A DNA stretch of 32,000 bases, taken from contig CAYHAA010000014.1 of the NCBI GenBank assembly GCA_964354495.1, forward strand, positions 47,392-79,391. The letters are read 5' to 3'. Positions 7,705 through 29,471 of this stretch are shown in pieces. The notes beneath the pieces were generated by a model. That model did no database searches and was not told the origin of the DNA. It saw only the letters and a program-made list of their open reading frames with translations. Origin of the DNA: an uncultured archaeon. Lineage in GTDB: Archaea; Asgardarchaeota; Thorarchaeia; Thorarchaeales; Thorarchaeaceae. The stretch's first letter is position 1. Each line of letters starts with the position of its first letter. The translations under genes and the position numbers were made by a program.

Positions 7705-9510
7705 ATGAACCTCGAAGAAGACTCGCAACATTTCTTTATCAATAGCCATGCGCATCCATCAGAGCGCGAGGTGTTGAGGTTGTCCGCCACACTGCAAGAC
7801 ACTGAATGGATACAGAGAGTACTAGACGTTGTCAATGAAGGCATGATAGTCATTCAAGACGAGGACATTGTGATGGCAAACTCTGCTTTCGCTGATATGC
7901 TGGAATATGACAGCAATGAGATCATAGACATCGCCTTCGAGGACCTCGTGGACAAGCTCTCTCGACGACATGACCGTGAGCTTATTGAATCTCTGATTAG
8001 TGGTGAGGATTTGTCGAAGTTCTCTACCCGCCTCGCGTCAAAGAACGGTCGCACTCTCCATGTTGAGATTACTCCCACACAAGTCACCCTGAAAGGAAAT
8101 CTGGCGATTCTAGCGAGCATTAGAAACATCTCGAAACAAATAGCATTGGAAGCAGCTGTGACTGAATTGGAGAACAGATTCGCGTCGCTCTATGATATGT
8201 CTCCCGTAGCATATTTCACCTTGAATCGAAATAGCGTGATAGAGCAGGTCAATGCTGCAGCTGAGGAGTTGCTCAGAACAAATGCTGAAGAGATAATAGG
8301 AAAACCTCTTTCTGTCTTCCTCCCAGAGCCAAAGCCTGGTTACAATCCTGGTGCCGACATCACAAGAGAAGTTCTGCTCGGCAAGAGCGTTAAAGACCTT
8401 GAGATGGAGTTTCGTAATAAGGAAGGAAGGAGTCTCTGGGCGAGTGTATCAGCTCGTTCCTTATCGTCCGACCCAGAGAAGCCAATTGAGATTGCGTTGA
8501 CTGCTGCAGACATCACCCGTCGGCGAGTCATGGAACAGAATCTTCGCGAGGAGAGAGAAAGGGCGAGTCTCTACCTGGATGTAATGACAAGCGACCTGAA
8601 TATGACAAATCAGAACGTTCTCTTCGCCTTGGAGGATCTCAGCATTTCCTTGGACCTTCCTGAGCGACTGAAGTCGCTCTTGAGCGAGACCGCATGGAGC
8701 CTTAGAAATGCTGCACGGATGATAGCCAATATCGGCGTTTTGATATCTCTCGACAAGTCGCCTCCTGAGAAGACTCAGACACGACTTCTTCCTCATTTCA
8801 AGAAGGCTGTAAGTGAGGCGTTAAGAGACTTCGAATGGAAATCTCTTCAGATATCCTCGAACATCGCAGACATCGATTTTGATGTAATAGGACATGCATT
8901 CATGTGGTACATATTTTTCAACATCATTCACTACTGTGCAAGTTCTGATACAAGTGAAGAAGTCGTTCTCAACATTCATGCTGAAATGACGGAAGCAGAC
9001 GACATGGTTAGAATCGAATTTGAAGATAGAGGGCCGGGTACACCGGATGGCGAGAAGGCACACATATTCAGAAGAGGGGAAGAGTCTAGGGACCAGCTGG
9101 CAGGAAAGGGTCTCAGTCTCACGGTTGTTGAACGATATATCTCACAGCTGGGTGGGAGGATCTGGGTTGAAGACAGAGTACGAGGCGATTATACTCAGGG
9201 ATCAAGGTTCATCGTTCTAATCCCTGCTTGGAAGGAAGTACTAGCAGTTCCACAGATCATCTTCTATAAATCAGACCACTGCGTCTTCTGCGGGCCAGTT
9301 CTTGCCAGCTTGACTGCTGTTCTGACCGAAATGGGTATTGCAACTTATGCAATAAAGACCATCAACGTTGATGATCCCGCCAGTGAGGTTTCTGAGGGTG
9401 ACCTGCCTGCTCTGCCAACCATCTATATGGGCCCAGAGCTGCTGTCTGGCTATCTCTCAGAAGATGATCTTCGAGCTGCTGTCACAAAGATGCTATTCAC
9501 ATCAGGTTGA
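7705..9510 (+). CDS. PAS-PAS-DHp-HATPase-like pseudo-histidine kinase with a C-terminal thioredoxin-fold (CVFC) domain
   Basis: Two PAS-like repeats. The H-box reads MTSDLN (His replaced by Ser), the N-box reads NIIHYC, G1 is DRGPG and G2 is GKGLSL. The C-terminus reads FYKSDHCVFC...INVDDP...LPALPT. Confidence 0.88.
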   Translation: MNLEEDSQHFFINSHAHPSEREVLRLSATLQDTEWIQRVLDVVNEGMIVIQDEDIVMANSAFADMLEYDSNEIIDIAFEDLVDKLSRRHDRELIESLISGEDLSKFSTRLASKNGRTLHVEITPTQVTLKGNLAILASIRNISKQIALEAAVTELENRFASLYDMSPVAYFTLNRNSVIEQVNAAAEELLRTNAEEIIGKPLSVFLPEPKPGYNPGADITREVLLGKSVKDLEMEFRNKEGRSLWASVSARSLSSDPEKPIEIALTAADITRRRVMEQNLREERERASLYLDVMTSDLNMTNQNVLFALEDLSISLDLPERLKSLLSETAWSLRNAARMIANIGVLISLDKSPPEKTQTRLLPHFKKAVSEALRDFEWKSLQISSNIADIDFDVIGHAFMWYIFFNIIHYCASSDTSEEVVLNIHAEMTEADDMVRIEFEDRGPGTPDGEKAHIFRRGEESRDQLAGKGLSLTVVERYISQLGGRIWVEDRVRGDYTQGSRFIVLIPAWKEVLAVPQIIFYKSDHCVFCGPVLASLTAVLTEMGIATYAIKTINVDDPASEVSEGDLPALPTIYMGPELLSGYLSEDDLRAAVTKMLFTSG

Positions 9511-9515
9511 TTGGA

Positions 9516-10631
9516 TTAGACTTTCGAGGGCATTGGAGCAAGGATGTCATCCTCGTCCTTGATTCCCATCTCAGAAATACCCATGTTCGGGTAAACGGTT
9601 ATTTCATCCCGAAGAGCAATCATATAGCCATCGTGTTCAGTCCTGATGATACCGTCACCAACAGGTCTTCCATGAATATCCGTAATCTTTGCGATTACCT
9701 GACCCTTGGTGACCCTCTCACCTGGACCTACAAGCATTCTCACAATTCCTGAATGCATTGCTCGAGGATGTTCAATCCTTCTGATTCTGTATTCAGGTAC
9801 CGGCACTTTGTACTCAGTTATTGCTTCTTTGGGAGAATCCAGCATTCCCGCCCACCTCAGCAGGTTCCTTGTTGCCTTTACGGCACCTGCAACAATTTCG
9901 GGAATGAGGACGCTATTACTCCCCAGCTCGACAGTGAACGCTGGGATTCTCAAAGTATTGAGGACAGCGCCGGAGAGCGAGCGGTGATATTTCAGGTTCA
10001 TATACTTCTTCGGTGGAAAGTCCGCAGTCATCATGGCTCCAGCACCGAACGCCTTGACCATACCAAGTTGTCTTCTTGCCAGTTCTTCGGCTTGTTTCTT
10101 CTCGTTCTCACCGTCATAGAAGACTCGGTCTAGGATGGAATAGGGAACGGAACGAAGTGAATGATTGTGGATATCAAGGTGATAGTCGGCATACCTCTCG
10201 AAGTACGAGAAGAGTAGTGTGGCCACTTGTTCGTAGGGTTTTGGATACTTCTTATCCTCGTCATCCTCATCCGGTTTGGCGAATCTACCTTCTGGAAACT
10301 GGCGGTTTGGGTCCTCATCTTGGTACTCCGGATGGCGACGATTTAATCGTAACGCTGTCGGATTCAGGGTTGGTATTGAAACGATGGTTCCTTTGAGCTC
10401 CGTTACTAAGTCCTCAGTCACTAATTCATGAAGAACAGCAACACCCGTTAGTTCATTTCCATGGATGTTTGCAGTCAGGAAGAATGTCGGTCCATCTATC
10501 TTCCCCTGAGCTATCACGACTGGTATTCTGTCAACGGTGCCCGTAGGCAGAGGCATTACGTCGATGAATCCATACTTGATGGTTCCGGGTTCACTTCTGA
10601 TATTGCCAATTTTGATTTTCTTCATCGGCAT
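9516..10631 (-). CDS. Succinylglutamate desuccinylase/aspartoacylase family (M14 metallopeptidase-like)
   Basis: Zn-binding HGNE, LDIHNH and catalytic VELG motifs, with a C-terminal biotinyl/lipoyl-like barrel. Start trimmed to ATG 10631. Confidence 0.88.
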   Translation of the reverse strand: MPMKKIKIGNIRSEPGTIKYGFIDVMPLPTGTVDRIPVVIAQGKIDGPTFFLTANIHGNELTGVAVLHELVTEDLVTELKGTIVSIPTLNPTALRLNRRHPEYQDEDPNRQFPEGRFAKPDEDDEDKKYPKPYEQVATLLFSYFERYADYHLDIHNHSLRSVPYSILDRVFYDGENEKKQAEELARRQLGMVKAFGAGAMMTADFPPKKYMNLKYHRSLSGAVLNTLRIPAFTVELGSNSVLIPEIVAGAVKATRNLLRWAGMLDSPKEAITEYKVPVPEYRIRRIEHPRAMHSGIVRMLVGPGERVTKGQVIAKITDIHGRPVGDGIIRTEHDGYMIALRDEITVYPNMGISEMGIKDEDDILAPMPSKV

Positions 10632-10814
10632 CAGCCTTCCACCAATGCTGGAGCAATTCGGTCCTTTTAATGCATCGGGAGATGGATTCGGTTGCCCCGG
10701 CGGTCTATTCGATGGTCTAGGAAGAAACGCACTTTGTGCCATACATGCGCGCACTGATTTCTTGGTTGGTCACTCTTATTAGGCAAGACACGGATAGTTC
10801 AGTGGGCAAGCATA

Positions 10815-12029
10815 GTGCGGGTATTGATGCGACTTCCATTATGGTCTAGGCTTCTAATGAAGGCACTACTGGTCATGCTTTTCCCACTTCAGTTCGGAAT
10901 CAGGAGCCCACTAGATGTTCTCAGTCTCCCATTCCAAGGACTGCTCTTCACGTCATGGTATCCAACGTACATATTCATTCTAGAGCGAGTACCAGATATC
11001 TCAGTCATCACTCACATCGGCCTGAACTTGTTTATTGGTGTAATGCTCGCCCTACCAGCTATCCTCTTCAACTATCGCCTGGCCAGGAGTCCTGCGAATA
11101 GGCGCATGAGAAGACTTGCAGCTGCTGCATTAGTGTTATCCGGATTGATGGTTTTCATGGTTCTGTTGTTCATTTCAGCGGCCATAATCGGTTCGGCTGG
11201 TTACTACAGCCACATGATCTTTCAGAATATTCTGACCTTTCCGACAATTGCAGTCGGTACCTTCATTGTCCTTCCAATAATACAGCGGCAAGCTATCTTG
11301 ATTGCATCTCCCAAGGAGGTGCATAGTTGTTCGCCAGATGAACTGCAGAAGCATCCACAGTCCGGCGTTGGCAGAGAGGTAACTCTGTCTACAATACTTT
11401 GGGCAAGCTTGTATTTTCTTCCCTTTCTCTTGTCCCCGGAGTACTCGTTCTACTATGGCCAAGAATTCTATGTGTCCTCACTTGCCTGTGGAGTGACCAT
11501 TTACTTTGGCGGTGGCATTTATCCTCAGGTTGGGCCGGCACTGATCTACGGTTCAATTGTTCCTCTTTTCACTTTGCCATCATTGTGCATTCTCAGTTCT
11601 CTAAGATTCGTCTTTGTTCGGGATATCTATAGGCATCTGAAACACGAAATGACCTATCGAAGGTTGCTGTACTTGGGGTTTCTTGCAGATTTCTTTCCTG
11701 TGATTGCCTACGTAGTGATACCGCGCATTTTGTTTGGTGGGTATATCTTATCGTCGATTGTTTTCCCGCTACCCTTTCTGGCAGTTGTTGGGCTGCTAGT
11801 CACAAGACTCCATAGGTCGGTCCTGCGTCTTCCGAACCGGATATGGGATGATGTTGAAGCGAGGATGTGGTTTGAGGAAGAAGAGAAACGACAAGACGTA
11901 GCACCTGTCCTTGAGAAAGCAGGTCGACCCGAAGATGAGACAATCACAGTGCCCTTGACCTACATAATGGTCTCTCACATTCGAAGGAGACGGCACAACG
12001 AGAATTCGAGAAGGCCCGATAGGGAGTGA
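10815..12029 (+). CDS. Uncharacterised polytopic membrane protein with a charged C-terminal tail
   Basis: 404-aa ORF with about 8-9 hydrophobic segments and no family motif I recognise. Start uncertain. Confidence 0.75.
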   Translation: MRVLMRLPLWSRLLMKALLVMLFPLQFGIRSPLDVLSLPFQGLLFTSWYPTYIFILERVPDISVITHIGLNLFIGVMLALPAILFNYRLARSPANRRMRRLAAAALVLSGLMVFMVLLFISAAIIGSAGYYSHMIFQNILTFPTIAVGTFIVLPIIQRQAILIASPKEVHSCSPDELQKHPQSGVGREVTLSTILWASLYFLPFLLSPEYSFYYGQEFYVSSLACGVTIYFGGGIYPQVGPALIYGSIVPLFTLPSLCILSSLRFVFVRDIYRHLKHEMTYRRLLYLGFLADFFPVIAYVVIPRILFGGYILSSIVFPLPFLAVVGLLVTRLHRSVLRLPNRIWDDVEARMWFEEEEKRQDVAPVLEKAGRPEDETITVPLTYIMVSHIRRRRHNENSRRPDRE

Positions 12030-12095
12030 CCTAGGTCACTGCTGAGGTCTCTCAGGCTTCAGGGAGTCGTCGATATGGGTATCCAAGTTCTGTAG

Positions 12096-13532: not shown

Positions 13533-13668
13533 TTCTGTCCACTCCGCAAAAGGTTAGATGGCGCCCGCTGCTTCGCTGCGCCTTTTAGGTTTGCTATTCG
13601 GGCCTTCCGATGGTTTGAAGTACTGCTTTTCTTATCAGTGTTTTACTGCACGAAATTGGTGAACAGCA

Positions 13669-14184
13669 ATGGATGTCATAAAAGCAATCAGAGAACGAAG
13701 GAGTATTCGAAAATACAAGTCGAAAGAGGTTAGCGAAGAGAGTATAGATATCATTCTTCAAGCTGGTAGATGGGCACCATCCGCGTCGAACAAGCAGCCT
13801 TGGCATTTCATTGTTGTCCGAGATCCCAACCTCCGAAAAAGACTAGCTGATGCTCATGCCTATGGGAGATACATGAAGGAATCACCAGTCGTGATTGTCG
13901 TGCTTGGAGATCCACAGAAGCACCCGAGGTACTATCTTGCAGACCCTCACCAAGCCGTTCAAAATATGTTGCTTGCGGCATACAATCTGGGAATCAGTAC
14001 GTGCTGGATGGGCGTTCGTGATACAGACATAGAGCCTGCATTCAGAGAGATACTCAACATTCCAGATGATCTAAGGGTCATCTGCTCAGTTTCCGTAGGG
14101 TATGGTGACGAGGAACGCACTAGTTCACGATACCCCCTTGATGAGATTGTTTCGTGGGAGACCTTCGGGAATAAATCCAAGTGA
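13669..14184 (+). CDS. Nitroreductase family flavoprotein
   Basis: RRSIRKY, APSASNKQPWHF, QNMLLAAYNLGISTCWMG. Confidence 0.93.
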   Translation: MDVIKAIRERRSIRKYKSKEVSEESIDIILQAGRWAPSASNKQPWHFIVVRDPNLRKRLADAHAYGRYMKESPVVIVVLGDPQKHPRYYLADPHQAVQNMLLAAYNLGISTCWMGVRDTDIEPAFREILNIPDDLRVICSVSVGYGDEERTSSRYPLDEIVSWETFGNKSK

Positions 14185-14190
14185 CCTACT

Positions 14191-15076: not shown

Positions 15077-15111
15077 TGTACCACTCTCCATCAACTCGAC
15101 AGCATCCTCTG

Positions 15112-15861: not shown

Positions 15862-15977
15862 TGCTTCACCAGCACGTATTCTTTCATCTTGCATGTCCAA
15901 ACCAAGCGTTAAGCATTTCTGATAGGAGAAACACGTCTGGGATAACCCTTTTCTGTCTCCTTACCCGTGACTGAGTC

Positions 15978-16925
15978 ATGGTCACTCTCGCTGATGTCCG
16001 TGCAGCAAGTAATAGAATCCAAGGTGCTGTGCTGAAGACCCCTGTTATGACATCAACGACAATTGATAAGTTGTCAGGAGGCAGCGTCTTCTTCAAGTGC
16101 GAAAATTTCCAGCGCGCCGGAGCTTTCAAGTTCAGGGGCGCGTTTAATGCAATCAGCCAGCTGACCCCCGAGGAACGCCAGAGGGGTGTTATTGCTCATT
16201 CCTCCGGCAATCACGCTCAGGCTCTTGCACTGGCAGCATCGATGCTCGGTGTGAAAGCAACGGCCGTCATGCCAAAGAACTCCTCGCAGGTGAAAGTCAA
16301 TGCAACGCGAGGTTATGGTGCCGAGGTTGTCTTTTGCGAGAACACCGTAGAGAGCAGAGCATCTGTGTGTGATTCTCTCGCCAAACAGCATGGCTACACC
16401 CTTATTCATCCCTACAATGACCCTCGAGTTATTGCAGGAGCCGGCACAGCAGCGCTCGAACTCATCGAAGAGGTTGGCTGCTTGGACTATGTCTTTGCCC
16501 CTGTCGGAGGCGGCGGATTCCTGAGTGGCACTTCGATCGCAGCCAAGGGCCTCTCTCCTACCATAGAGGTGATTGCAGTCGAACCTGCAAATGCAGATGA
16601 TGCCTATCGTTCCTTCAGGGCAGGGAAGATACTTCCTAGCGTGAATCCTCACACAATAGCTGATGGTCTGAGGACCCAACTGGGAGATCTCACATTCGCG
16701 GTGATTCAGAAGAACGTGAATGATATCATCACCGTGACAGAGGAGGAAATCGTTAGTGCAATGAGATTTCTCTGGGAACGCATGAAGCTCGTAGTTGAAC
16801 CATCTGGTGCAGTCTCTCTGGCTGGACTACTAAAGCAGAAGAGCAGAATGAAACACAGACGTGCTGGCGTGATGATAAGTGGGGGTAATATCGACCTCAC
16901 AAGTTACTTCGATACGCTTCTATGA
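15978..16925 (+). CDS. PLP-dependent threonine/serine dehydratase or serine racemase-like enzyme (no regulatory ACT domain)
   Basis: KCENFQRAGAFKFRGA (PLP lysine), SSGNHAQ, PVGGGG, EPSGA, SGGN. Confidence 0.92.
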   Translation: MVTLADVRAASNRIQGAVLKTPVMTSTTIDKLSGGSVFFKCENFQRAGAFKFRGAFNAISQLTPEERQRGVIAHSSGNHAQALALAASMLGVKATAVMPKNSSQVKVNATRGYGAEVVFCENTVESRASVCDSLAKQHGYTLIHPYNDPRVIAGAGTAALELIEEVGCLDYVFAPVGGGGFLSGTSIAAKGLSPTIEVIAVEPANADDAYRSFRAGKILPSVNPHTIADGLRTQLGDLTFAVIQKNVNDIITVTEEEIVSAMRFLWERMKLVVEPSGAVSLAGLLKQKSRMKHRRAGVMISGGNIDLTSYFDTLL

Positions 16926-19208
16926 CACGATTTCTGGCTTCTTTGTTCTTGGCAGCCATACAGAGAACTCTGCCCCTTCATAGGGGTGTCCTTGCACTCG
17001 GTCTCGAACCTCAATTCGGCCTCCGTACTTGTCACAAATCTGTTTCGATTGCAGGAGACCCACGCCCCCATATCGCCTGGATACATCAAAGATAGCGCTC
17101 TTCAGTGATTCTGAGATTCCATCGCCATTGTCAGAGATACAGACCTCATAGCCATCCCCATTCCTAAACAGCTTGACCCATACCTTTCTCTCTGCTTTTG
17201 GATTGTGCTCAATTGCATTCTCGATGAGGTTGGTCAGCAATTGCTCCAGGAATTCGTCTGCGTCGACAATGGCATTCTTGTTTCGTATTGAAACCTCGAT
17301 CTCAGCATCCTTGTTCTGGGTCCGAAGCGATTCGACGATCTCTTCAACTGTGGAATCCAGTCTTCTTGAATAGAGCGGCACTGACATGAGAGGTTCAGTT
17401 ATCTTCACTTTTGATATCATGCTTTGGCAACGCTCCACTGCCGATACTATCTGCCCCAATAGCCTTCGGTCGTTGGAGTCCTCTAGTCTCGCTTCCATGA
17501 CCATGGAACTGCCAAGGATTATCTGTAGTTGGTTTCTGAAATCGTGAGACATTAGATCAAGATACATGCTGGCTCGCTCTTTCTGGCTTTGTATGTGTTT
17601 CTCGGCAATGTTGCGCGTAGTAACATTCATCGCAACTAGCTGCAAGGCTGGAGCTCCCTCAAACTCCACGCGTCTCCCGAACATCTCAAGGAATTGTGTA
17701 CTTCCGTCCTTATGGAAGGCCCGCATCACTATCGGGATGCTCGCTGGTGGCTCTCCTGCCATCAGCTTTTGGAGCCTGTCCATAAGAATGCTCCAGTCCT
17801 CAGGATGGATCTTCTTCTGAATCTCTCCTGCTGTCAGAGCAAGTACTTCCTCAACGGTCAAGCCTAGGAAACCTGCAAAAGCCGGATTGGCAAACTTCAC
17901 CGCTAGTGGCAATGCTTGAATGATTGCGATTCCCTGAAATGATTGTTCGACCAGTGTTCTGTATTTGAGCTCTGAGGCAATCAAGGCCTGCTCTGCCCGC
18001 TTTCTTTCCTCAATGTTGCGGACCACCCCGAGCACACCTGTCGGTTTGCCGTTTTCATCACGTAAGAACGTGCGTGTGGTTTCTACCTGAATCGTTGAGC
18101 CATTCATGTGCCTGAGTCTGAGTTCAATAGGCGGTGAGTCACCTCTGGTCAGTGTTTGGTCCGACATCTTTTCCGCTTCAAGTGCCTCACTCATGGCTTG
18201 GATTGCTGTCCATACAGAATCAGGTGTCATAAGTTCAATCATGGATTTGCCAATCAGTTCATCTGCGGTGTGCCCAGTTAGTAGCTTCACGGATGTGCTA
18301 ACGTATGTGAGATTCAGTTCCAAGTCTGTAGTGAAAATCACGTCGGTTACATTCTCGGCCAGCAGTTGGTATCGTTTCTCACTATCCTGAAGAGCTGCTT
18401 CTGTGGCTCTGTGCCCTGTCTTCTCTGTGATTTGACTCAAGTATCCCTTGAGTTCGCCATTGTTCTTGGATCTTAACGGAATCACCGATGCATCGAGAAT
18501 CATAGTGCCTGACCGAGAAGTCCTGTAGAGTCCCTTCTCTTTCACCTTGTCAAAATCGAAGACAACTTCGTACTTCACAGGTTCTCCACGAATCAGTTTT
18601 GCCCTGATTTCCGCTGGGATATTCGGGTCGTCAAAAAGACTGAATCCGACAAGCTCCTGTAGGCTTGTTATGCCTGCCATTTCTAAAGAGGCGAGGTTAG
18701 CTTTGGTAAGTATTCCCTCACTATCGAAGAGCTCAATTGCAACTTGTGACTCTTCGAAGATTCTCCTCATTATTTCTGCGTTTTCTTCTAGGGCTTCACG
18801 AGATCTCTTTAATTCTGTGATGTCGGTTATGACAGCAAAGGAACCCTTGTGCTGCCCGTTTTCGTCAACCAGAGGCGCGCCAGATACGATTGTTGAAATG
18901 GTTTCTCCGGAGTTCTTTGTCCAATCGAGTTCATATTGAGTTGCTTTTCCCTTCGCACGTTGACGAATGACTTCTCGGAGGATTTTCCTATTTTTCTCAT
19001 CGAGGAAGTCAGTAATCGCCTTGCCAATCATTTGACTTGCGTTGCATGCAAGCATCTCTGCAAAACGAGGATTGACATAGGTGAAGATACCCTCATCATT
19101 GATGATTCCAAAACCATCATTCATGGACTCGACTAAGACTCTATACTGATAGGCTTCTTCTTGATGTGTGAGTCCATTTTCGGGACTGCTTCCTGTCTTA
19201 TCGTCCAT
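16920..19208 (-). CDS. Cytoplasmic multi-PAS (4 PAS-like repeats) sensor histidine kinase
   Basis: Intact H-box MSHDFRNQL, N-box NLIENAIEHN, G1 DNGDGI and G2 GGVGL. No thioredoxin domain. Start at ATG 19208 or 19229. Confidence 0.92.
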   Translation of the reverse strand: MDDKTGSSPENGLTHQEEAYQYRVLVESMNDGFGIINDEGIFTYVNPRFAEMLACNASQMIGKAITDFLDEKNRKILREVIRQRAKGKATQYELDWTKNSGETISTIVSGAPLVDENGQHKGSFAVITDITELKRSREALEENAEIMRRIFEESQVAIELFDSEGILTKANLASLEMAGITSLQELVGFSLFDDPNIPAEIRAKLIRGEPVKYEVVFDFDKVKEKGLYRTSRSGTMILDASVIPLRSKNNGELKGYLSQITEKTGHRATEAALQDSEKRYQLLAENVTDVIFTTDLELNLTYVSTSVKLLTGHTADELIGKSMIELMTPDSVWTAIQAMSEALEAEKMSDQTLTRGDSPPIELRLRHMNGSTIQVETTRTFLRDENGKPTGVLGVVRNIEERKRAEQALIASELKYRTLVEQSFQGIAIIQALPLAVKFANPAFAGFLGLTVEEVLALTAGEIQKKIHPEDWSILMDRLQKLMAGEPPASIPIVMRAFHKDGSTQFLEMFGRRVEFEGAPALQLVAMNVTTRNIAEKHIQSQKERASMYLDLMSHDFRNQLQIILGSSMVMEARLEDSNDRRLLGQIVSAVERCQSMISKVKITEPLMSVPLYSRRLDSTVEEIVESLRTQNKDAEIEVSIRNKNAIVDADEFLEQLLTNLIENAIEHNPKAERKVWVKLFRNGDGYEVCISDNGDGISESLKSAIFDVSRRYGGVGLLQSKQICDKYGGRIEVRDRVQGHPYEGAEFSVWLPRTKKPEIVS

Positions 19209-19409
19209 TCTTCTTCGCTCTGAATGCATCGAAAGCCATTCTTTTCTGACGAAAGCAAACCATATAGAATTCTCTAGGATGTAGTGGTCTTCCTCAGTAG
19301 AACCTGCAATATGTTCGGTTACCTCTCCAAGAGCGAATCATTCAGTTTAGCGAACTGGATGCCTTAGGAACTGCTATTGACATGTCTGTCATTGGCGGTG
19401 GAGATCCAT

Positions 19410-20515: not shown

Positions 20516-21139
20516 TCATTTCTGAATCAGGATTCCGCTGTCAACATCTGATACTGCTTGCTTCATGCGTTCGGCAAGCTTTGCTGCGAGTCGCGTAATG
20601 CCCTCGATGTAGGCTTTGTCGAATTCGTCCTCTAGAAGTGTGGCATAGCCCATGATGTTATGCAATACTCCAGTGACATCATGGGACAGTCCATGGATGA
20701 ACTCGCTGGCGACTTCGACCGGTATCCCTTTTGGAGAGCCTTCGGTTGATACTTGATGTCTGGAGTCAATCACCTTTCGTATGATATCGCGAATAGATAT
20801 CAGCTGTTCTTTGACGTCTGTTCCTTTAAGCACATAGAAGTCAGCGCCTAGATTCAGGGCTCTAATCACAACATCCTCTCTAGAATGCGCTGTCCACATA
20901 ACGAAGCCAATAGTATCGCTGTCACAACGAAGCGCCTCCAAGAGGTCCAAGCCTGTGGCATTTGGCATCAGATAATCCGCTACTACAACATCGATCTCTT
21001 CACTGTCCAAGATCGCAAGGGCCTCTTTCACAGATTTCGCAACCACAAGTTCGATACCCGGATCTGTCTGTTTGAAGAGTATACTGGCGATGTCAAGCAG
21101 TTCCGCATCATCATCGACAAGTAACAATCGAGTATTCAC
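20516..21139 (-). CDS. Receiver domain fused to a HisKA/DHp-like helical domain, with no ATPase domain
   Basis: REC motifs LLVDDD, ADYLMP, WTAH and VLKG are intact. The C-terminal LSHDVTGVLHNIMGYATLL resembles an H-box. GGAGTGA RBS before the GTG start. Confidence 0.88.
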   Translation of the reverse strand: MNTRLLLVDDDAELLDIASILFKQTDPGIELVVAKSVKEALAILDSEEIDVVVADYLMPNATGLDLLEALRCDSDTIGFVMWTAHSREDVVIRALNLGADFYVLKGTDVKEQLISIRDIIRKVIDSRHQVSTEGSPKGIPVEVASEFIHGLSHDVTGVLHNIMGYATLLEDEFDKAYIEGITRLAAKLAERMKQAVSDVDSGILIQK

Positions 21140-21268: not shown

Positions 21269-21406
21269 ATTCCCATGTCCTAAGTTCTTGTTCTATTAGA
21301 ATTCAGCAATGACCAACATATGTGTACGTTAACCACTGACTTATTATTGTTTGAAATACACCTCACAATTAGGCTGTTAGATTGAACGGCGGGAGCGGAC
21401 CACTAC

Positions 21407-22318
21407 TTGATTGAACGTGCAGACGTGGATCGATTGAAGGGTGATGAGCTACTCCGTCTAGCAAGGGCGCTAGCGATACCCCTTGCCAAGAGAGTCGTCA
21501 AGCGAAGTTGGCTCTTGGACGAGATAATGGATGAGTTCGACCGTCGTGAAACAGGAAAGGAACCAGTCGCGAAGCTTCAATCGCCTGCAATTCAAATCCA
21601 AGGACTTGAGAAACGATTTGGCTCAAAAGTCGCAGTGAAGAATCTTGATCTAGACGTTGATCCTGGTGAAATCGTTGGTCTTGTCGGTCCAAACGGAGCA
21701 GGCAAGACTACAACTCTCAGAATTCTCACGGGTATAATCAAGCCCTCAAAGGGCATTGTCAAAGTCAATGGTTACGACATGTCCTCAGAGGCCATTAGGG
21801 CAAAGAGATGTGTAGGCTATATTCCTGAGAAGCCCACGTGTTATCCGAGTCTTACTGCTCGAGAGTATATCATGTTCATGGCACGAATCTACCATGTGCC
21901 TGCCGAGATTGCGCTGATTCGAATGCGAGAATTCGTTGATATGTTTCAACTAGATGAGTTACTGGATACATATGTCGGAACGCTTTCTAAGGGGAATCTT
22001 CAGCGCGTCTTACTTGTGGGCATCTTTGTGAGACCTCCCCCGTATGTTCTTGCTTTTGATGAACCCATCTATGGTCTGGATCCTAGAGGCGCATGGAATC
22101 TCAAGGCCCTCATGAAGAAGCTACGAAATGAAGGCTCCGCAATACTCATGTCCACACACATCCTGGAAGTGGCATCGGAACTATGTAGTCGATTTGTCAT
22201 CATGAACGAGGGTGAAGTCGTCGGACGTGGAACCCTCGAGACTCTATTGGAATACCACAAGGATGCACGCAACCTTGAGGAAGTGTTTCTTGGTCTGACA
22301 GGCGGAATACCCCAGTAG
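21407..22318 (+). CDS. ABC transporter ATP-binding protein (exporter type) with an N-terminal helical extension
   Basis: Walker A GPNGAGKT, signature LSKGN, Walker B AFDEP, H-loop STH. Confidence 0.95.
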   Translation: MIERADVDRLKGDELLRLARALAIPLAKRVVKRSWLLDEIMDEFDRRETGKEPVAKLQSPAIQIQGLEKRFGSKVAVKNLDLDVDPGEIVGLVGPNGAGKTTTLRILTGIIKPSKGIVKVNGYDMSSEAIRAKRCVGYIPEKPTCYPSLTAREYIMFMARIYHVPAEIALIRMREFVDMFQLDELLDTYVGTLSKGNLQRVLLVGIFVRPPPYVLAFDEPIYGLDPRGAWNLKALMKKLRNEGSAILMSTHILEVASELCSRFVIMNEGEVVGRGTLETLLEYHKDARNLEEVFLGLTGGIPQ

Positions 22319-23911
22319 GTGAATCCCTTGAAGTCAAGCATGTACGTGCTGTCCAAGAATGAAGTTCGAATGCTCTACAACCAGTTCAAGCAGACAATCC
22401 GAACTCCTTCCATGCTACTCTTCTACTGCATCACATTGTTTGGTGTCTTCTTCGTGAGCTTGGTCGTTTCATCAATGCTGGCGCTCTCGCCGCTGATTAT
22501 GGAGATGGGTTCGCTTCTGGAGAGTACTATTGATAGAAACACGCTCTTTGCTGCATTTGCTTTCCTTAGTGCTACCTCTGTCGTCGGCGGCTACTTTGGT
22601 ATAGGCATCGCATCCGGCCTCACCGCCGTCCAAGAAGTTGTGTTACTTCCCGCACCGGTATTGCCATACAAAGTATTCCTGAGTAACTATCTCCGACGTA
22701 TCTTCAGGAAGACTGCATTCACGTTGATAGGTCTCATGGCTATCCTTCCCCTGCTCACAAACGCTAGTCTCCTATTCTACTCAACCTCACTTATGATAGT
22801 GTGTCTGATCATTTTTCTGGAAACCAATTACTTCCTCGGAGCCATTAGCTCCTACATTCGGTTTGTAGTCGAGCAAAAAACTAGGAGTCGGTTTCGCCAT
22901 CTTGCTGCAGTTCTCCTAGGTATTCTTCTACTTCTTCCAGCACTACCGGAATTCACATCGACTTTCACACTTGCCTATCTCGTTCCTTCAAATGCCTTTG
23001 TATTTGCATTCACTGAGATGACAGGACTCTTTTCGCTGGACGTCAGTTACTTGATTGGATTTGGACTGCAAATCATCGTTTTTGCCATAGCTCTCCTGCT
23101 CACTGCAAATCTATGCTCCTATGAGTATTACGAGCTCCTCTCAATCGTCAAGGGTCGGGAGACAACAGAGGGCAATTTCAGTAGATTCATTCGAGGCGAG
23201 GTTGACTTCTCGAAAACCAGATTTCAGGATCCAATGGTATGGATGATGCTCAAAGACTTCTATAGCAAGCTGCGCACGCCGATGCAGATATGGAAGTATG
23301 TCTATGCAGTAGTTGGAACAATTACGGTGCTATACCTAAATCTGTTTCACCCGGCATGGTTCAGACCAATTCAAGTGCCAGGAGGTCTTGCATTCGCGAT
23401 TGTTCCTGCATTCCTGCTCATGATGATACTTCTCGTTCAGATATCAAGCGTTACCTCGATGCTGAGCTTTGTTGACGAGAAAGAGAATGTCTATCTTCTC
23501 AAGGCAAGCCCTTTCAGTTCCGGAGATATTGTTCTCGCCAAGTTCTTGCTGAGTCTATTCGAAGTAAGTATTGCTGTTATCCCTGCATGTGGATTCTTAA
23601 TCTATATTCTGAGAATCGAAGGATATCTCGCTCTGGTCGCGTTGGCAGCTCCCATGACTATACTGTTCACTGCTGTTGGTGTAGCAATCGGAGCATACGT
23701 ACCTGTATTGACAAACGACCCTCGAACTCTGCCAGTGCCACTTGCATTTTCATACCCTATCATTGATCTGTCTCTCGGTGCGCTAATGGTCTTCATTGTG
23801 GCAATCCTTGCAGGCAGTCAAGTTGTTCTTTTTGCATTGCCGCTCTACTGCGTTGGATTTACTCTTCTTTTCCTCTGGATTGGGGCGACGGCACTGAATA
23901 CATACAGATAG
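22319..23911 (+). CDS. Putative ABC exporter permease
   Basis: About 12 TM segments in two halves, directly abutting the ATPase stop. EKENVYLLKASP...IVLAK is typical of ABC-2-like permeases. Confidence 0.8.
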   Translation: MNPLKSSMYVLSKNEVRMLYNQFKQTIRTPSMLLFYCITLFGVFFVSLVVSSMLALSPLIMEMGSLLESTIDRNTLFAAFAFLSATSVVGGYFGIGIASGLTAVQEVVLLPAPVLPYKVFLSNYLRRIFRKTAFTLIGLMAILPLLTNASLLFYSTSLMIVCLIIFLETNYFLGAISSYIRFVVEQKTRSRFRHLAAVLLGILLLLPALPEFTSTFTLAYLVPSNAFVFAFTEMTGLFSLDVSYLIGFGLQIIVFAIALLLTANLCSYEYYELLSIVKGRETTEGNFSRFIRGEVDFSKTRFQDPMVWMMLKDFYSKLRTPMQIWKYVYAVVGTITVLYLNLFHPAWFRPIQVPGGLAFAIVPAFLLMMILLVQISSVTSMLSFVDEKENVYLLKASPFSSGDIVLAKFLLSLFEVSIAVIPACGFLIYILRIEGYLALVALAAPMTILFTAVGVAIGAYVPVLTNDPRTLPVPLAFSYPIIDLSLGALMVFIVAILAGSQVVLFALPLYCVGFTLLFLWIGATALNTYR

Positions 23912-23913
23912 GT

Positions 23914-25824
23914 TCAACCTCTTCCTGCCAGTCTGAGTGCGTTTGCGATGACCAAGAAGGTAAGACCCATATCGCCCACTCCGATTGCAATCCATAATGT
24001 CATGAGGCCAACACTTGCTAGGACTCCGGTCACAGCTTTCACCGAGAGCGAAGTGGCCACATTCTGACGAACGATTTGCATAGTCTTCTTTGCTTTCATA
24101 ATCAGTCCTGGAATTCTTGTCAGATCCTCTTTCATTAGGGCAACATCTGCAGTCTCTAGGGCTGCATCTGAGCCGGCAACCCCCATGGCTATTCCAACAT
24201 CTGCAGCCGCCAGGGCAGGCGTATCGTTTATTCCATCACCAATCATCAGGGTGACTCCGGATTTTTTCAATTCCTCAATAACGGCTACCTTCTGATTCGG
24301 CAAAAGCTCCGCTCGATATTCAGAGATACCAATCTCCTCTGCAATATCCTTTGCGACGTTCTCGCTATCACCAGTCAACATGACTGTTCGGATACCCATC
24401 TCATTAAGTCTGGCTATAGCCTCCTTTGCACCTGATCTGATTGTGTCTGAGAGTATGATGGTGCCAGAGTGCTCTGAGTCTTGAGCTACATAGACCATCG
24501 TGCCAGCTCCGCAGTCATGCTGTTCAACTGGCTCTAGAGGAACGCTGCTGTCAAGCAGGAGCCTCCGATTGCCGACAAGGTACTCTGTTTCACCAATACG
24601 CCCTCTGACTCCTCTTCCGGGTCTTGATAGGAAGTCTGACACTTGGACTCTGCCCAAATTCTCCCGAGATGTAGCCTCGATAAGAGCTCTCCCAATTGGA
24701 TGTTCTGACATCGTCTCTACCGAAGCCGCTGCAGACAGAACTTCATCGCGCGTGTGATTATTATGCAAGCAGACATCCTTGACAGATAGCACACCTTCGG
24801 TCAAGGTTCCGGTTTTGTCGAATGCTACGACTTTAGTCTTACTCATTTGCTCAATGTGAATTGCTCCTTTCACGAGGACGCCATTGCGAGCGGATCCTGC
24901 AATCGCGGACACCATGCTTACTGGAATTGAGACCGCAAAAGCACAGGGGCAGCTGACGACCAAGAGGGTAAGGGCTCTGTATGTTGAGTCTATCAGCGAA
25001 AGGCCTAGTGTGAATGAGATGAGTGCCACAAGCACCGCTATTCCTACCACAGCGGGAGTGTAGACCCTCGAGAAGCGTGTGATTGCCTTTTCTGTGGGTG
25101 CTCGGTTCTTGCGAGATTCATCCACTAGTTGGATGATCTTGGAGAGAAGTGTGGTCTTCGACTCTTCGGTTGCCTCAACTTCAATATATCCCTCTTGGTT
25201 AATTGTTCCCGCGTACACCTGGTCTCCTAGGGATTTTGGTACTGGAAGAGATTCTCCCGTGATTGTTGATTGGTCTACCGATGTTGAGCCCAGCGTTATG
25301 GCCCCGTCCAGCCCAATTCTCCTGCCAGGTCTCACAATCAGAGTGTCTCCCTTTCTGACTTCCTCGGGTGCCACACACACTTCTTCCCCATCTACCTTAA
25401 TGGTCACTGTTGGCGGTTCTAGCTCCACTAGTTTCTGTATCTCGTTTCGGACTCTGTCTTCTGCTGTCTCCTCCAAAAGAGTTGAGATATAGAAGAGGAA
25501 CATGACTGCAGCTCCCTCAGCTGGGGCTCCAATTAAGACTGCTCCTAAGGATCCTGTGGTCATCAAGAAGTGCTCGTCAAGTCTGAGTTTCGCCAGCCCT
25601 CTGACTCCTTTCGGGATGATAGATCGCCCTGCTGTGAATATTGCTATCAGAAATGCAGAATAGACCCAAATCATGTCAACAAGAAGGAACTCAAGTAACA
25701 GTCCTGCAGTGAGCATGCTAGCAGAGAAAACTGCAGTCCCATACTTGTATATTCTTGGCTTCTTGGCTTCTGTTGACTGTGGGCTGCCACACGTCAGACA
25801 ATCGTCCTCATTTGCCTCTAACAT
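23914..25824 (-). CDS. cadA: P1B-2 heavy-metal (Zn/Cd/Pb) P-type ATPase
   Basis: TGES, CPC, DKTGTLT, SEHP and GDGINDTP motifs; TM7 Lys and TM8 DMG; short N-terminal CLTC. Confidence 0.93.
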   Translation of the reverse strand: MLEANEDDCLTCGSPQSTEAKKPRIYKYGTAVFSASMLTAGLLLEFLLVDMIWVYSAFLIAIFTAGRSIIPKGVRGLAKLRLDEHFLMTTGSLGAVLIGAPAEGAAVMFLFYISTLLEETAEDRVRNEIQKLVELEPPTVTIKVDGEEVCVAPEEVRKGDTLIVRPGRRIGLDGAITLGSTSVDQSTITGESLPVPKSLGDQVYAGTINQEGYIEVEATEESKTTLLSKIIQLVDESRKNRAPTEKAITRFSRVYTPAVVGIAVLVALISFTLGLSLIDSTYRALTLLVVSCPCAFAVSIPVSMVSAIAGSARNGVLVKGAIHIEQMSKTKVVAFDKTGTLTEGVLSVKDVCLHNNHTRDEVLSAAASVETMSEHPIGRALIEATSRENLGRVQVSDFLSRPGRGVRGRIGETEYLVGNRRLLLDSSVPLEPVEQHDCGAGTMVYVAQDSEHSGTIILSDTIRSGAKEAIARLNEMGIRTVMLTGDSENVAKDIAEEIGISEYRAELLPNQKVAVIEELKKSGVTLMIGDGINDTPALAAADVGIAMGVAGSDAALETADVALMKEDLTRIPGLIMKAKKTMQIVRQNVATSLSVKAVTGVLASVGLMTLWIAIGVGDMGLTFLVIANALRLAGRG

Positions 25825-26170
25825 GTTCGTGCGCCCTCGTTAATATGTCGATAATACAGTCATCGCTAATCGTGTAGAATACTTGCTTCCCATCTTGCTT
25901 GTGCCTAGTGAATCCTAATTTGTCAAGAATACTGAGATGATGGCTCACCCTGCTAATCGACATACCGAGGAGTTCAGCAATGTCCGATACGCAGATGCTT
26001 TTCCCCTCTATCAAGGCTGATACTACCCTCAGTCTCGTTGGATCAGCCAAAGCCTTGAAGATTCTCACGACGTTTCGTATCTCGTCTTCTTCGTAGTTGA
26101 TAGGAATCTGCACTCCTTGATTCACCGCAATCCCCATCTGAGTTCGCTGTTCAGGAATCTCTAACAACAT
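25808..26170 (-). CDS. ArsR/SmtB-family metal-responsive repressor
   Basis: FKALADPTRLR, CVSDIAELL, SRVSHHLSIL, GKQVFY. Overlaps the start of the ATPase gene. Confidence 0.93.
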   Translation of the reverse strand: MLLEIPEQRTQMGIAVNQGVQIPINYEEDEIRNVVRIFKALADPTRLRVVSALIEGKSICVSDIAELLGMSISRVSHHLSILDKLGFTRHKQDGKQVFYTISDDCIIDILTRAHEHVRGK

Positions 26171-26335
26171 TCAAACAATTGTACTAACGTTATAATGTTA
26201 TCTGTGTGTTGCAAGACCGATATCCTCTGTCAATAGATCAAATGCAGGTGGCATTGATTTCGAACACAGAAGTATTATCTAGGTCCGCCGGCATCTGTAG
26301 TGGCTGACCGGGATCGAACAATGCGCAGTAGATGG

Positions 26336-26351
26336 TGATTCCATGGAATCA
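26336..26351. promoter_or_regulatory. Perfect 16-bp palindrome, candidate operator
   Basis: TGATTCCATGGAATCA, 65 nt upstream of the kinase TTG start. Confidence 0.35.
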
Positions 26352-26416
26352 TTTGATACGCTACATTTGTTTAGTTCCACCTTGGGATAGATAACCACAG
26401 TCCAGGTGTTGAAAAG

Positions 26417-28192
26417 TTGCAGGAGCACAAAAGGACAAATCGCGAAGCGGATCAATCCAAGCAGTTCGAAGATATGGTCATGATGGCAAACGAAGGCATC
26501 ATGGTAATCCAAGAAAACCATCTAGTTCTGGCGAATCCTGCTCTGCATAGAATGCTCGGTTTCGACGATGGAGAGCTCGTTGGGAAGCCTGTGAGTAGCA
26601 TACTCGATTCGGCAACAGCCCACTATTACAAGGAAGGACAAGAGGCACTGAAATGGAGCGAGCTAGACCATCCCAGTTTTCGTGCATGCCTCATGATGAA
26701 GAAAGGTAGCTTACTCGATGTGGAGATAAGCATATCCAACTTCATCTTATCCTATTATCCAGCGATACTGGGATTTGTGAGGGACATCACTGGCCAAATT
26801 GAGCTAGAGGCAGCCATTGATGCATCAGAAACCCGGTATAGAGCCCTCTTTGATTCCTCGCCTATTGCGTACATCACACTGAGCCTGAGAGGGAATATTC
26901 TCCAAGTTAACAAAGCAGCGTGTCGTCTTCTGGGCTATGGCGAGGATGAACTTCTACGGAGAAATCTTGCATCGTTTATCCCTGACAAAGAGAGAAATGG
27001 CATTGTGGGTGAATTCACCTCTGAGGTGGCTCAGGGTAAGAACCTTGAGAACTTTGAGATGCAACTACAGCGTTCAGATGGTCGACCGACTTGGGTAAGT
27101 GTTACAGCGAACCTCCTAGAATACCCTGACAAGTCCTCTAGCATAGGTTTGATGGCACTCGATATTGACAGAAGAAAATCAGCTGAAGCTCGAGAGTATG
27201 CTGAAAGGGAGCGTGCCAATCTCTACCTTGAGGTGATGACGCATGACCTCAACAACATCAACCAAAGCCTCCTATTCTCACTTGGCCTTGTAGAGTCAGC
27301 GCCAACGACTCCGGCAGACATACAGTCCATGATGCAACAATCGAGCTGGCACATCAGACGATCTGCGCGGATGATAGCTAATATGCGTGCCATCATGCGC
27401 CTTCGAGAATCGCCTCCAACTGCTGAAGAGGTGGATTTGTTCGATTATGTCCAAATGGCCAAGTATGCCATTGAGGAGGACTTTCCCTGGAAGAAGCTCT
27501 CCTTGAAGACGAACATTAGTAAGAGCGAGTTCAGAGTAGCAGGACACGAATATCTTCATCAGGTTTTCTTCAATATCATTCACAACTCAATGTCATTTGA
27601 TACGCGAGATGTAGTAGATGTAGAAGTGAATGCGAAGCACGTTGATAATCTGAAAATGGTACGAGTAGAGATACTTGACAATGGTCCGGGCATACCAAAT
27701 CATGCCAAAGAATTCATTTTTCGAAGAACAGGTAGTCCCGATGAACAGATTGTAGGAAGAGGTCTCGGACTCACGCTAGTGGACCAGATTATCCGGAGCC
27801 TCGGAGGCATGATTCGTGCTGAGGACAGAGTCGAGGGCGACTACACAAAAGGTGCCAAGTTCGTAATGATGCTACCAATGTGGATAGAGGCACAGAAATT
27901 GCCATGTGGACGTAATACTTGCATCACTTTCTACAAGTCTAACCACTGCGTATTCTGTGAACCTGTAATGCAGACCCTCCTGGTTGTCCTTGAGGAACTT
28001 AGCGTTTCTAGGTCTATTGTAGAGGAGCTCAATGTGGATGATCCCGCGCTTGGCTTAGACCGCAACCGGCTTCCGATGCTGCCCTACATGAAAATATGCG
28101 ACGAAGAATTCACTGGCTTCATCTCGGACGAAACGATCAAGAATGCAGTGCAGAATCTTGCAATCAAGAGCTGCTATCCTGAAGTCCGTTAG
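26417..28192 (+). CDS. PAS-PAS histidine kinase with a C-terminal thioredoxin-fold (CVFC) domain
   Basis: Intact H-box MTHDLNN, N-box NIIHNS, DNGPG and GRGLGL. The C-terminus reads FYKSNHCVFC...LNVDDP...LPMLP. TTG start with an AGGTG RBS. Confidence 0.92.
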   Translation: MQEHKRTNREADQSKQFEDMVMMANEGIMVIQENHLVLANPALHRMLGFDDGELVGKPVSSILDSATAHYYKEGQEALKWSELDHPSFRACLMMKKGSLLDVEISISNFILSYYPAILGFVRDITGQIELEAAIDASETRYRALFDSSPIAYITLSLRGNILQVNKAACRLLGYGEDELLRRNLASFIPDKERNGIVGEFTSEVAQGKNLENFEMQLQRSDGRPTWVSVTANLLEYPDKSSSIGLMALDIDRRKSAEAREYAERERANLYLEVMTHDLNNINQSLLFSLGLVESAPTTPADIQSMMQQSSWHIRRSARMIANMRAIMRLRESPPTAEEVDLFDYVQMAKYAIEEDFPWKKLSLKTNISKSEFRVAGHEYLHQVFFNIIHNSMSFDTRDVVDVEVNAKHVDNLKMVRVEILDNGPGIPNHAKEFIFRRTGSPDEQIVGRGLGLTLVDQIIRSLGGMIRAEDRVEGDYTKGAKFVMMLPMWIEAQKLPCGRNTCITFYKSNHCVFCEPVMQTLLVVLEELSVSRSIVEELNVDDPALGLDRNRLPMLPYMKICDEEFTGFISDETIKNAVQNLAIKSCYPEVR

Positions 28193-28250
28193 GAAGACAG
28201 ACTTGGAAAAAGAAGTGATATGAGAGGAGTAGCCTCTCATATAGTTATAA

Positions 28251-28613
28251 CTAGAAGACCATTGTACGATCGTGCTTTAGCACATCGTCCACCATGGTAG
28301 CTGCGCCCGCAATCTCGATTCTGGAATCTCTCAGTTCTTCCTGTTTGATTCCACGGAATTGCACAGAATTTGAGCAGACCTGTATCTTTCCGCCAGCCTC
28401 GAGGAAGGAGTTGATGAGTTCAGGCAGCGGTGGAAATCCTGGAGCCTTGACCCTCTCAGCTGCTCCCTTCTTCATCAGCATGACACCATCCATCATGAGG
28501 AAGATTGTCACATTGACATCAAGTGTCTGCGCAGTGGTACCAGTTACAAAAGGACCGTAGCATCGTTCTGCTGCTTCAGGACCCCATTGTGCAATAATGT
28601 ATAGACTAGGCAT
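28251..28613 (-). CDS. DsrE/DsrF-like sulfurtransferase family protein
   Basis: VTIFLMMDGV, GGKIQVCSNS and IAGAAT motifs; two Cys (ERCYGPF, VCSNS). Confidence 0.88.
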   Translation of the reverse strand: MPSLYIIAQWGPEAAERCYGPFVTGTTAQTLDVNVTIFLMMDGVMLMKKGAAERVKAPGFPPLPELINSFLEAGGKIQVCSNSVQFRGIKQEELRDSRIEIAGAATMVDDVLKHDRTMVF

Positions 28614-28627
28614 CTTGTATTCATCTC

Positions 28628-29020
28628 CTACATGACAGCTATTTCAGCGTAGTAAATGACGAGTCCAAGCAGTGTGAGCAGCGTGACCAAGAGATTGGTC
28701 ATGTGCGAGCTGTGGAATGGACCGCCTTGCATTGTCTTCAGCAGTACGGGCAGAATCTGACCGAATTGCATGAGTGTTGCTATTAGTACTAGAACAAAGT
28801 CAAGCAAGATGATGATGTGAAGATAATCGAACATTGCAGGTACAGGTGGGAAGAAAAGCCCAACAAGCAGAGCAGCAATGCCAATCATCATCGCAAACAT
28901 CAATGCCATGACTTGATTCATTAAGCAAAAGCCCATTCTTCTAGCGAGCATAAAGCCGGAGAACATCGCACTTATGTTCAAGGCCAGAAGAACGAACAGA
29001 ATCAGTTGAAAAAGTGCCAT
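28628..29020 (-). CDS. Small (130 aa) 4-TM membrane protein of unknown function
   Basis: Hydrophobic, Met-rich ORF. AGGTG RBS before ATG 29020; ends 14 nt before the DsrE start. Confidence 0.75.
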   Translation of the reverse strand: MALFQLILFVLLALNISAMFSGFMLARRMGFCLMNQVMALMFAMMIGIAALLVGLFFPPVPAMFDYLHIIILLDFVLVLIATLMQFGQILPVLLKTMQGGPFHSSHMTNLLVTLLTLLGLVIYYAEIAVM

Positions 29021-29231
29021 ATTGATACACCTATTATTCCAAGAGCTAAAATGACAATAGATAAACATGTCGGAAAAGGAACACAGTATCGAAGCATCGG
29101 TTTTATTAGGTAACCAAAGGCCTGTTTCGATGTTCGTTTCCGCGCAGAAACAAGTCCGAGATTGAATATGTATTTGGGTGCTAGAGAAACGCATAAAAAC
29201 TGTTCATAAAAGGAGCAGAAGGCGATTGGCT

Positions 29232-29471
29232 ATGACAGATCATCAAGTTGCGGCAGTGTTCGATGCAAGTGGGCTTAGATGTCCAATGCCGATATTGAAG
29301 ACGAAGAAAGAAGTGCAAGGAATCAAAGTCGGAGAAATACTGAAAGTGATAGCCACTGATATTGGCACAAAGAAGGACTTTCCAGCTTGGGCTGAGAGAA
29401 GTGGCAATGAGATACTTGAGCTAGTCGAAGAAGGAGACAAGCTCCTCTGGTTCATCAAACGCTTGAAGTAG
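29232..29471 (+). CDS. tusA: TusA/SirA-family sulfur carrier protein
   Basis: DASGLRCPMPIL motif, then GEILKVIATDIG...W...GN. Start trimmed to ATG 29232. Confidence 0.92.
   Translation: MTDHQVAAVFDASGLRCPMPILKTKKEVQGIKVGEILKVIATDIGTKKDFPAWAERSGNEILELVEEGDKLLWFIKRLK

Follow-up and report, generated by a model that had tools for sequence, protein, structure and literature searches.

The stretch of DNA analysed here, called the window throughout, is 32,000 nucleotides long and lies on contig CAYHAA010000014.1 of an uncultured archaeon of the Thorarchaeaceae. It encodes two paralogous histidine kinases, each ending in a small thioredoxin-fold domain that current profile libraries do not recognize. 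One of them (P0002, labelled A) keeps the phospho-acceptor His, and the other (P0001, labelled B) has lost it. The combination of an active kinase and a dead one is an old, selected arrangement and not an accident of one genome. We read the pair, at a probability of roughly one half, as a soluble PAS-PAS kinase tuned by thiol or metal chemistry together with a non-phosphorylatable modulator twin. A first-pass annotation of the window, made from the sequence, had tentatively joined about 22 kb of it into a single sulfur-gated phosphorelay. Every gene that it named was found at the coordinates it gave, and the conserved pair is the best-supported part of its proposal. The genome holding the window is 3.3 Mb in size and 97.7% complete. 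It encodes about nine histidine kinases, two of which belong to the thioredoxin-tailed family, and seven receiver domains, which are mostly stand-alone.

The kinase pair

The two kinases and their key residues are located in the window as follows.

7705..9510, + strand: His-less paralogue B, same domain order as A
8590-8592, + strand: Ser296 of B, at the position of the phospho-acceptor His
8932-8934, + strand: Tyr410 of B, at the position of the N-box Asn
26417..28192, + strand: active kinase A, PAS-PAS-DHp-HATPase_c plus a thioredoxin-fold tail that looks tethered
27242-27244, + strand: His276 of A, phospho-acceptor in DHp helix 1
27584-27586, + strand: Asn390 of A, N-box (ATP-binding box)

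A and B are collinear, with 38% identity across 565 residues (E 9e-135), and both have the order PAS-PAS-DHp-HATPase_c followed by about 100 more residues. A has the G1 box DNGPG and the G2 box GRGLGL, and its HATPase_c domain is matched at E 2e-15. The database form of A is 570 residues long, and its true start is probably later than the start of the listed open reading frame (ORF), maybe at Met22 at about position 26480. In the B protein of the window the G1 box is retained and the G2 box is degraded to GKGLSL.

Key residues were read in a set of 71 fused genes from 61 genomes, comprising 42 A-type and 29 B-type sequences. The phospho-acceptor His, the N-box Asn and both G boxes are intact in all 42 A-type sequences (15 genera), and A is equipped with everything that an autokinase needs. 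The phospho-acceptor position of the B-type sequences is occupied by Ser, Thr, Gln, Asn or Arg and never by His (29/29), so B cannot be phosphorylated at the canonical site. Since the replacement residues are so varied, the position is not a new phospho-site. Loss of the N-box Asn from B is confined to the window's genus, where Tyr or Phe is found; the other genera nearly always keep it (one has Ser), and most ATP-binding motifs of B are kept outside the window's genus. The G1 box is kept and the G2 box is partly degraded in B-type sequences. The description of one paralogue as active and the other as dead is supported.

The family to which the window belongs comprises 16 genera. A-type genes were found in 15 of them and His-less B genes in 10. 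In a quick tree (LG+G4 model, with the four-PAS kinase of the window as root) the B sequences form a single clade, for which the Shimodaira-Hasegawa-like approximate likelihood ratio (SH-aLRT) support is 100; long-branch caveats apply to this tree. Their mean pairwise identity of 0.45-0.55 is on a par with that of the A sequences (0.35-0.55). B keeps the D-x-x-N motif (D-L-N) after the lost His, the sequence R-M-I-A-N in DHp helix 2 and the G1 box. The R-M-I-A-N signature is common to A and B; those other kinases of this genome that were read lack it. In the window's genus the two genes share a contig and are separated by 17-20 kb in every case seen. The distance is 17-34 kb in three genomes, one from each of three other genera, and about 80-110 kb in three further genomes. 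It is the monophyly of B, its presence in 10 of the 16 genera and its conservation to the same degree as A that mark the pair as old and selected.

Conserved kinase-like proteins without His autophosphorylation are known. DivL of Caulobacter is a pseudo-histidine kinase with Tyr in place of His (PMC4211667), and the archaeal proteins RdmS and MsmS, which lack the H-box, still bind and hydrolyse ATP (PMC11784639). Like B, these proteins retain the kinase fold, and RdmS binds ATP (PMC4211667, PMC11784639). B differs from them in having an active sister kinase within its own genome and in sharing a thioredoxin tail with that kinase. No pair of a kinase and a His-less twin of this kind was found described in the literature. 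The literature searched, which did not extend to subscription journals, likewise held no characterized kinase with this architecture, in agreement with the first-pass annotation.

The thioredoxin-fold tail

The elements of the tail in A and B are the following.

27905..28180, + strand: thioredoxin-fold domain of A, from the AlphaFold2 model, Foldseek and the alignment
27947-27958, + strand: Cys511 and Cys514 of A, the CxxC, invariant
28082-28084, + strand: Pro556 of A, before strand 3, invariant
27905, 27920, 28097 and 28172, + strand: Cys497, Cys502, Cys561 and Cys586 of A, the four extra Cys, invariant in A-type sequences
9280-9291, + strand: CVFC of B, the CxxC of its tail
9415-9417, + strand: Pro of the B tail, the invariant Pro before strand 3

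The tail is hard to detect from its sequence. A Pfam search with it gave nothing significant (the best match was glutaredoxin-like at E 0.099), a NCBIfam search with the fused tails and a PDB sequence search with the tail gave no match, and the ESM Atlas returned only sub-threshold thioredoxin and glutaredoxin leads (0.84). It scores under the curated threshold of every thioredoxin or glutaredoxin sequence family that was tried. An alignment-based AlphaFold2 model of the tail, with a predicted local distance difference test (pLDDT) of 81, has the order strand-helix-strand-strand-strand-helix and places CVFC at the start of helix 1. When this model was compared with the PDB using Foldseek, all the top matches were thioredoxin, glutaredoxin or NrdH, with a probability of 1.00 and template modelling (TM) scores of 0.5-0.65. 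The CxxC and the Pro are present in all 71 fused sequences, including all 29 of B type, and correspond in domain numbering to Cys27/Cys30 and Pro72, which are invariant in the alignment. The tail is thus a predicted minimal thioredoxin/glutaredoxin domain at the level of fold and motif, and the name thioredoxin given to it at first pass holds at that level. A model of the DHp, ATPase and tail domains together (predicted TM score 0.64) has a linker between ATPase domain and tail with pLDDT below 50, and in it the tail looks tethered to the kinase core rather than docked on it.

Four Cys in addition to the CxxC distinguish the tail. Two of them form a C-x4-C just before strand 1, a third closely follows strand 3 and the fourth comes right after the last helix. 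Every one of the 42 A-type sequences has all six Cys. The B protein of the window lacks the extra four, as does B in most genera; within the B clade their loss took place on at least two separate branches. In each of the 71 fused sequences they are either all kept or all missing, and this all-or-none inheritance indicates that they behave as one unit. The topology of the thioredoxin fold suggests that the four come together at the pole that faces away from the CxxC, where they may form a metal site or else paired disulfides. Outside the tail, neither A nor B has a conserved Cys, so the thiol chemistry is confined to the tail. TGA codons occur inside some B-type matches, and selenocysteine was considered as an explanation; in the case that was worked out (G060) the TGA proved to be the stop codon of the gene itself.

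The nearest known families are the small archaeal thioredoxins MJ0307/MTH895 (TIGR00411) and the glutaredoxin-like DUF836 (PF05768), which share with the tail a CxxC and a minimal thioredoxin fold of four strands and about 80 residues. They gave the sole hints obtained for the tail family at the sequence level, TIGR00411 at E 0.006 and PF05768 at E 0.002-0.1, all far under the family cut-offs; the TIGR00411 match was to one stand-alone copy and lies below the cut-off of 92.8 bits. The N-terminal C-x4-C and the two C-terminal Cys are not known in either family.

The tail family is small. A profile search of 1.84 billion proteins gave 99 cluster representatives. In about 20 of them the domain is joined to a kinase of about 580 residues; most of the others are stand-alone proteins of 100-130 residues with the same six-Cys pattern. 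All named members are from Thorarchaeota or the "Asgard group", and the closest named relatives of the proteins are from Candidatus Thorarchaeota. In a phylum-wide sample of 151 genomes the strong matches and the kinase-tail form were found only in the window's family; the other families gave only weak matches to the core fold. Within a class-wide sample of 61 genomes every genome has two to eight copies of the domain. The genome of the window has two fused and two clear stand-alone copies, the latter at L003:1471-1806 (+ strand) and L004:1498-1863 (- strand).

The stand-alone six-Cys proteins (L003, L004, L096, L093-L095, L097-L099) occur in at least three conserved contexts. In the first, the gene lies directly downstream of a pyridoxal phosphate (PLP) enzyme of Cys/Met metabolism and beside MarR, and genes for NifU, a cysteine desulfurase and a paralogue of DsrE are found within 5 kb of it. 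In the second its flanking genes encode an M14 peptidase and an ATC hydrolase. In the third it is directly downstream of a glutathione-synthetase-like ATP-grasp gene and beside the proteasome alpha subunit.

A different fusion was also seen in the phylum. Another Asgard lineage has proteins with the order PAS-Trx(CVYC)-PAS-kinase (P0176, 660 residues, P0185 and P0217; G165:C123:51676-51924), in which the thioredoxin domain is detectable by Pfam and has no extra Cys. Asgard PAS kinases have thus acquired thioredoxin folds on two or more occasions. Weak matches to the tail core were also seen inside open frames of 487-511 residues in family f7 (G065:C1:77713-77967, G110:C68:2770-3021, G127:C63:1234-1482), which may represent a further small-thioredoxin-fold fusion.

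Possible modes of action

In the reading that we prefer, a flexible linker would tie the ATPase domain of A to a thioredoxin-fold domain carrying a CxxC dithiol and a separate four-Cys site. The thiol or disulfide state of the CxxC would alter the way in which the tail acts on the DHp/ATPase core, thereby tuning autophosphorylation, and occupancy of the four-Cys site, for example by a Zn-thiolate center or another metal, may add to this tuning. B would be a redox-gated modulator of the pathway of A. It may act as a phosphatase or a sequestering partner for the response regulator of A, or it may be a heterodimer partner of A. A phosphatase-type role is suggested by the D-x-x-N retained in B and by EnvZ, in which His243 mutants retain phosphatase activity. 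Kinases whose output is set by Cys oxidation include ArcB, RegB/PrrB and SrrB, in which single Cys residues lie in the PAS, DHp or ATPase domains. A and B are unlike these proteins in that they have no conserved Cys outside a dedicated thioredoxin-fold module.

Several points weigh against this reading. Redox activity, metal content, regulation of the kinase and contact between A and B are all inferred, and the idea of a His-independent phosphatase is an analogy with EnvZ. Sensor domains are normally N-terminal to DHp, and for a tail at the C-terminus an output or docking role would be just as plausible. The model of the three domains together shows no confident docking of the tail on the core. 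The placement of the four Cys comes from topology reasoning only, and Cys497 is in a low-confidence loop. In addition, a stand-alone relative, P0166, keeps just two of the four extra Cys, which makes paired disulfides an alternative to a single metal site.

It is less likely that the tail is primarily a metal or Fe-S sensor. The six Cys would then bind Zn, Cd, Cu or an Fe-S cluster, possibly bridging the two tails of a dimer, and the kinase would report metal, iron or oxygen status and not thiol redox. The all-or-none set of four extra Cys, arranged as C-x4-C ... C ... C and invariant in A, speaks for such a site. There are also precedents within the fold. E. coli Trx2 has an additional Zn-Cys4 site, and 2Fe-2S clusters are bridged by certain CxxC glutaredoxins. 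Furthermore, a regulator gene and a heavy-metal ATPase gene are divergent from A in 10-12 of 15 genera.

25808-26170, - strand: ArsR-family regulator
23914-25824, - strand: P1B heavy-metal ATPase with a CPC motif, without an HMA domain

However, B has lost the four Cys in most genera and has kept the CxxC, so the constant feature of the family is the dithiol and not the Cys4 site. ArsR and the ATPase also form a self-sufficient regulatory unit, and in three genera the two genes are not beside A.

A more doubtful alternative is that the tail is a docking or output module, either a binding fold like that of KaiB and SasA or an oxidoreductase gated by the PAS domains and the nucleotide state, with B as a version of the same device free of phosphotransfer. 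The tail is C-terminal, where kinases normally carry receiver or transfer modules, and B, although it cannot be phosphorylated, has kept its tail and PAS domains along with most of its ATPase domain. The stand-alone copies found in all sampled genomes of the class would also fit a binding or output role. SasA of Synechococcus provides a precedent, since in this histidine kinase, as in A, the catalytic part is combined with a thioredoxin-like fold other than a canonical sensor domain, which in SasA can act as a pure binding domain (PMC3161067). Its KaiB-like domain is N-terminal and binds KaiC (PMC3161067), whereas the tail of A is C-terminal and has the CxxC, the Pro and four more Cys. The tail departs from the SasA/KaiB type in its position, in its invariant CxxC and in the lack of a KaiB match; weak KaiB matches were obtained for more distant Asgard proteins only and for none of these tails. 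The invariance of the CxxC and the Pro throughout the fused set points to chemistry rather than mere binding. Neither KaiB nor SasA is known to have a CxxC.

A more novel picture can be drawn, and it is less likely than the preferred reading. The tail would be the working end of a new archaeal signal transducer, in which the PAS domains and the nucleotide state would control how reactive the dithiol and a four-Cys metal or Fe-S center are towards sulfur carriers or other targets. The His-less twin would then illustrate output without phosphotransfer, and the pair would constitute a push-pull redox switch specific to Thorarchaeota.

The gene neighborhood and the wider setting

The other genes of the window that bear on the proposed sulfur link lie directly 3' of A.

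28251..28613, - strand: DsrE-family sulfur carrier, Pfam DsrE E 6e-16, convergent with A
28374-28376, - strand: Cys80 of DsrE, the carrier Cys, present
28628..29194, - strand: DUF5400 small membrane protein, same orientation as DsrE
29178..29471, + strand: TusA-type sulfur carrier, Pfam TusA E 7e-21, NCBIfam TusA E 8e-13 (below cut-off)
29280-29282, + strand: Cys35 of TusA, in a CPMP motif, the carrier Cys, present

The Pfam scores of DsrE and TusA are above the cut-offs. The true start of DUF5400 is probably Met59 (29020) and that of TusA probably Met19 (29232). As A is convergent with DsrE-DUF5400, the genes are not co-transcribed, which is consistent with the earlier view that they are not one operon.

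The neighbors of A were counted as those window genes lying within about 10 kb of A, using 31 loci from 15 genera. The most constant neighbor is the following gene pair.

21407..23911, + strand: ABC ATPase and a 530-residue polytopic membrane protein without a Pfam family (an ABC exporter)

The numbers of genera in which each neighbor is near A are listed below.

ABC ATPase and 530-residue membrane protein: 13/15
P1B heavy-metal ATPase: 12/15
ArsR: 10/15
DinB: 10/15
DsrE, DUF5400 and TusA: 9/15 each, always together
SPFH: 5/15
REC-DHp protein: 1/15
Four-PAS kinase: 1/15

No receiver gene is conserved beside A across these loci. The ABC exporter, the P1B ATPase with ArsR, and DinB are steadier neighbors than the sulfur carriers, so the adjacency of the sulfur module does not rise above the background synteny of the block. 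The pattern is that of a conserved block with occasional rearrangement in which the sulfur carriers are not singled out. DsrE orthologues with at least 67% identity occur in almost every genome of the family. In the six genera where the sulfur module is not next to A, the genome has a DsrE orthologue of 67-79% identity at another place, and because both A and the module are kept in these genera, the module has moved as a unit. In genera g5 and g12, A directly abuts SPFH where the flank was recovered. Where A and the module are neighbors the gap between them varies from 58 bp to 5 kb. Two g5 genomes appeared to have lost A together with the DsrE/TusA module; their contigs end exactly at the syntenic block, and SPFH is missing as well, so co-loss was rejected.

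A related arrangement is known from Metallosphaera cuprina, in which dsrE3A-dsrE2B-tusA, like the DsrE, middle gene and TusA of the window, encode Cys-bearing carriers (PMC4175335). In contrast to the M. cuprina cluster, the middle gene here encodes the DUF5400 membrane protein and the window has no Hdr-like genes. The DsrE-DUF5400-TusA genes are a self-contained, mobile three-gene unit with a merely putative link to the kinase.

Two further genes belong to the same 22 kb.

20516..21139, - strand: REC-DHp protein (P0003), intact receiver (Asp55, Thr83, Lys105) and a helix pair with His153, no ATPase domain
16920..19229, - strand: four-PAS histidine kinase (P0004), 769 residues, two strong and two weak PAS domains, H-box intact

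The gene next downstream of REC-DHp is DinB. Of the 16 genomes sampled in the window's genus, only 8 have the full REC-DHp protein, and it was not found in any genome sampled outside that genus. Its H-box resembles that of REC-PAS hybrid kinases and is of a type unlike that of A or B. The four-PAS kinase lies within 10 kb of A in the window's genus only. Their synteny and distribution exclude both proteins from the system, of which they are lineage-specific neighbors, and the proposal that the 22 kb form one relay is not supported. The active and dead pair recurs across genera and the REC-DHp protein does not.

Elsewhere in the genus there is instead a DHp-only ORF of 85-116 residues. In the two genomes without the receiver part in which the slot was read, this ORF has about 90 residues and the His is kept (L030:16648-16929, + strand; L033:2130-2399, - strand). 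These are 60-66% identical to the REC-DHp protein of the window over the helix pair and may be mini phosphotransfer or decoy proteins. Archaeal "HisKA, no HATPase" proteins with PAS or GAF sensors have been described from Archaeoglobi and Methanomicrobia, and a phosphotransfer or phosphatase role has been proposed for them (Galperin et al. 2018, PMC5847659). REC-DHp and the DHp-only ORFs resemble that set in having a His-bearing helix pair without an ATPase domain; they differ from it in consisting of REC and DHp, or of DHp alone, and in coming from one Thorarchaeota genus.

The sulfur-gated phosphorelay itself, in which the CxxC tail would read persulfide on DsrE and TusA, B would tune A and REC-DHp would relay the phosphate, is very unlikely: the module adjoins A in nine genera, TusA and DsrE keep their carrier Cys, and a stand-alone relative of the tail lies beside the Cys/Met-metabolism PLP enzyme and near NifU, NifS and the DsrE paralogue, but the convergent orientation and variable gap, the relocation of the module in six genera, its lower constancy beside A and the restriction of REC-DHp and the four-PAS kinase to one genus all argue against it. 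Thioredoxins are able to reduce protein persulfides, which is in its favor. The sulfur-relay story is conjectural and should not spread as an annotation.

Away from these genes, the window also encodes, at 10815-12029 on the + strand, a 404-residue polytopic membrane protein without a family match, located between an AstE/AspA-like gene and EutA.

The Asgard archaea are the closest known relatives of eukaryotes, and their signal transduction is almost unstudied. What is new here is the four-Cys unit, the tiny tail family, the old His-less clade and the synteny test of the sulfur link. The tail defines a small, unannotated family of six-Cys thioredoxin-fold proteins that is missed by current profile libraries. 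Its kinase-bound form was found in one family only and has been retained in 15 of the 16 genera of that family. In A the redox or metal input to a kinase would be naturally modular, placed in a dedicated thioredoxin-fold domain instead of scattered cysteines. The natural pair of kinase and pseudokinase would allow one to ask what the histidine kinase scaffold does after the loss of phosphotransfer.

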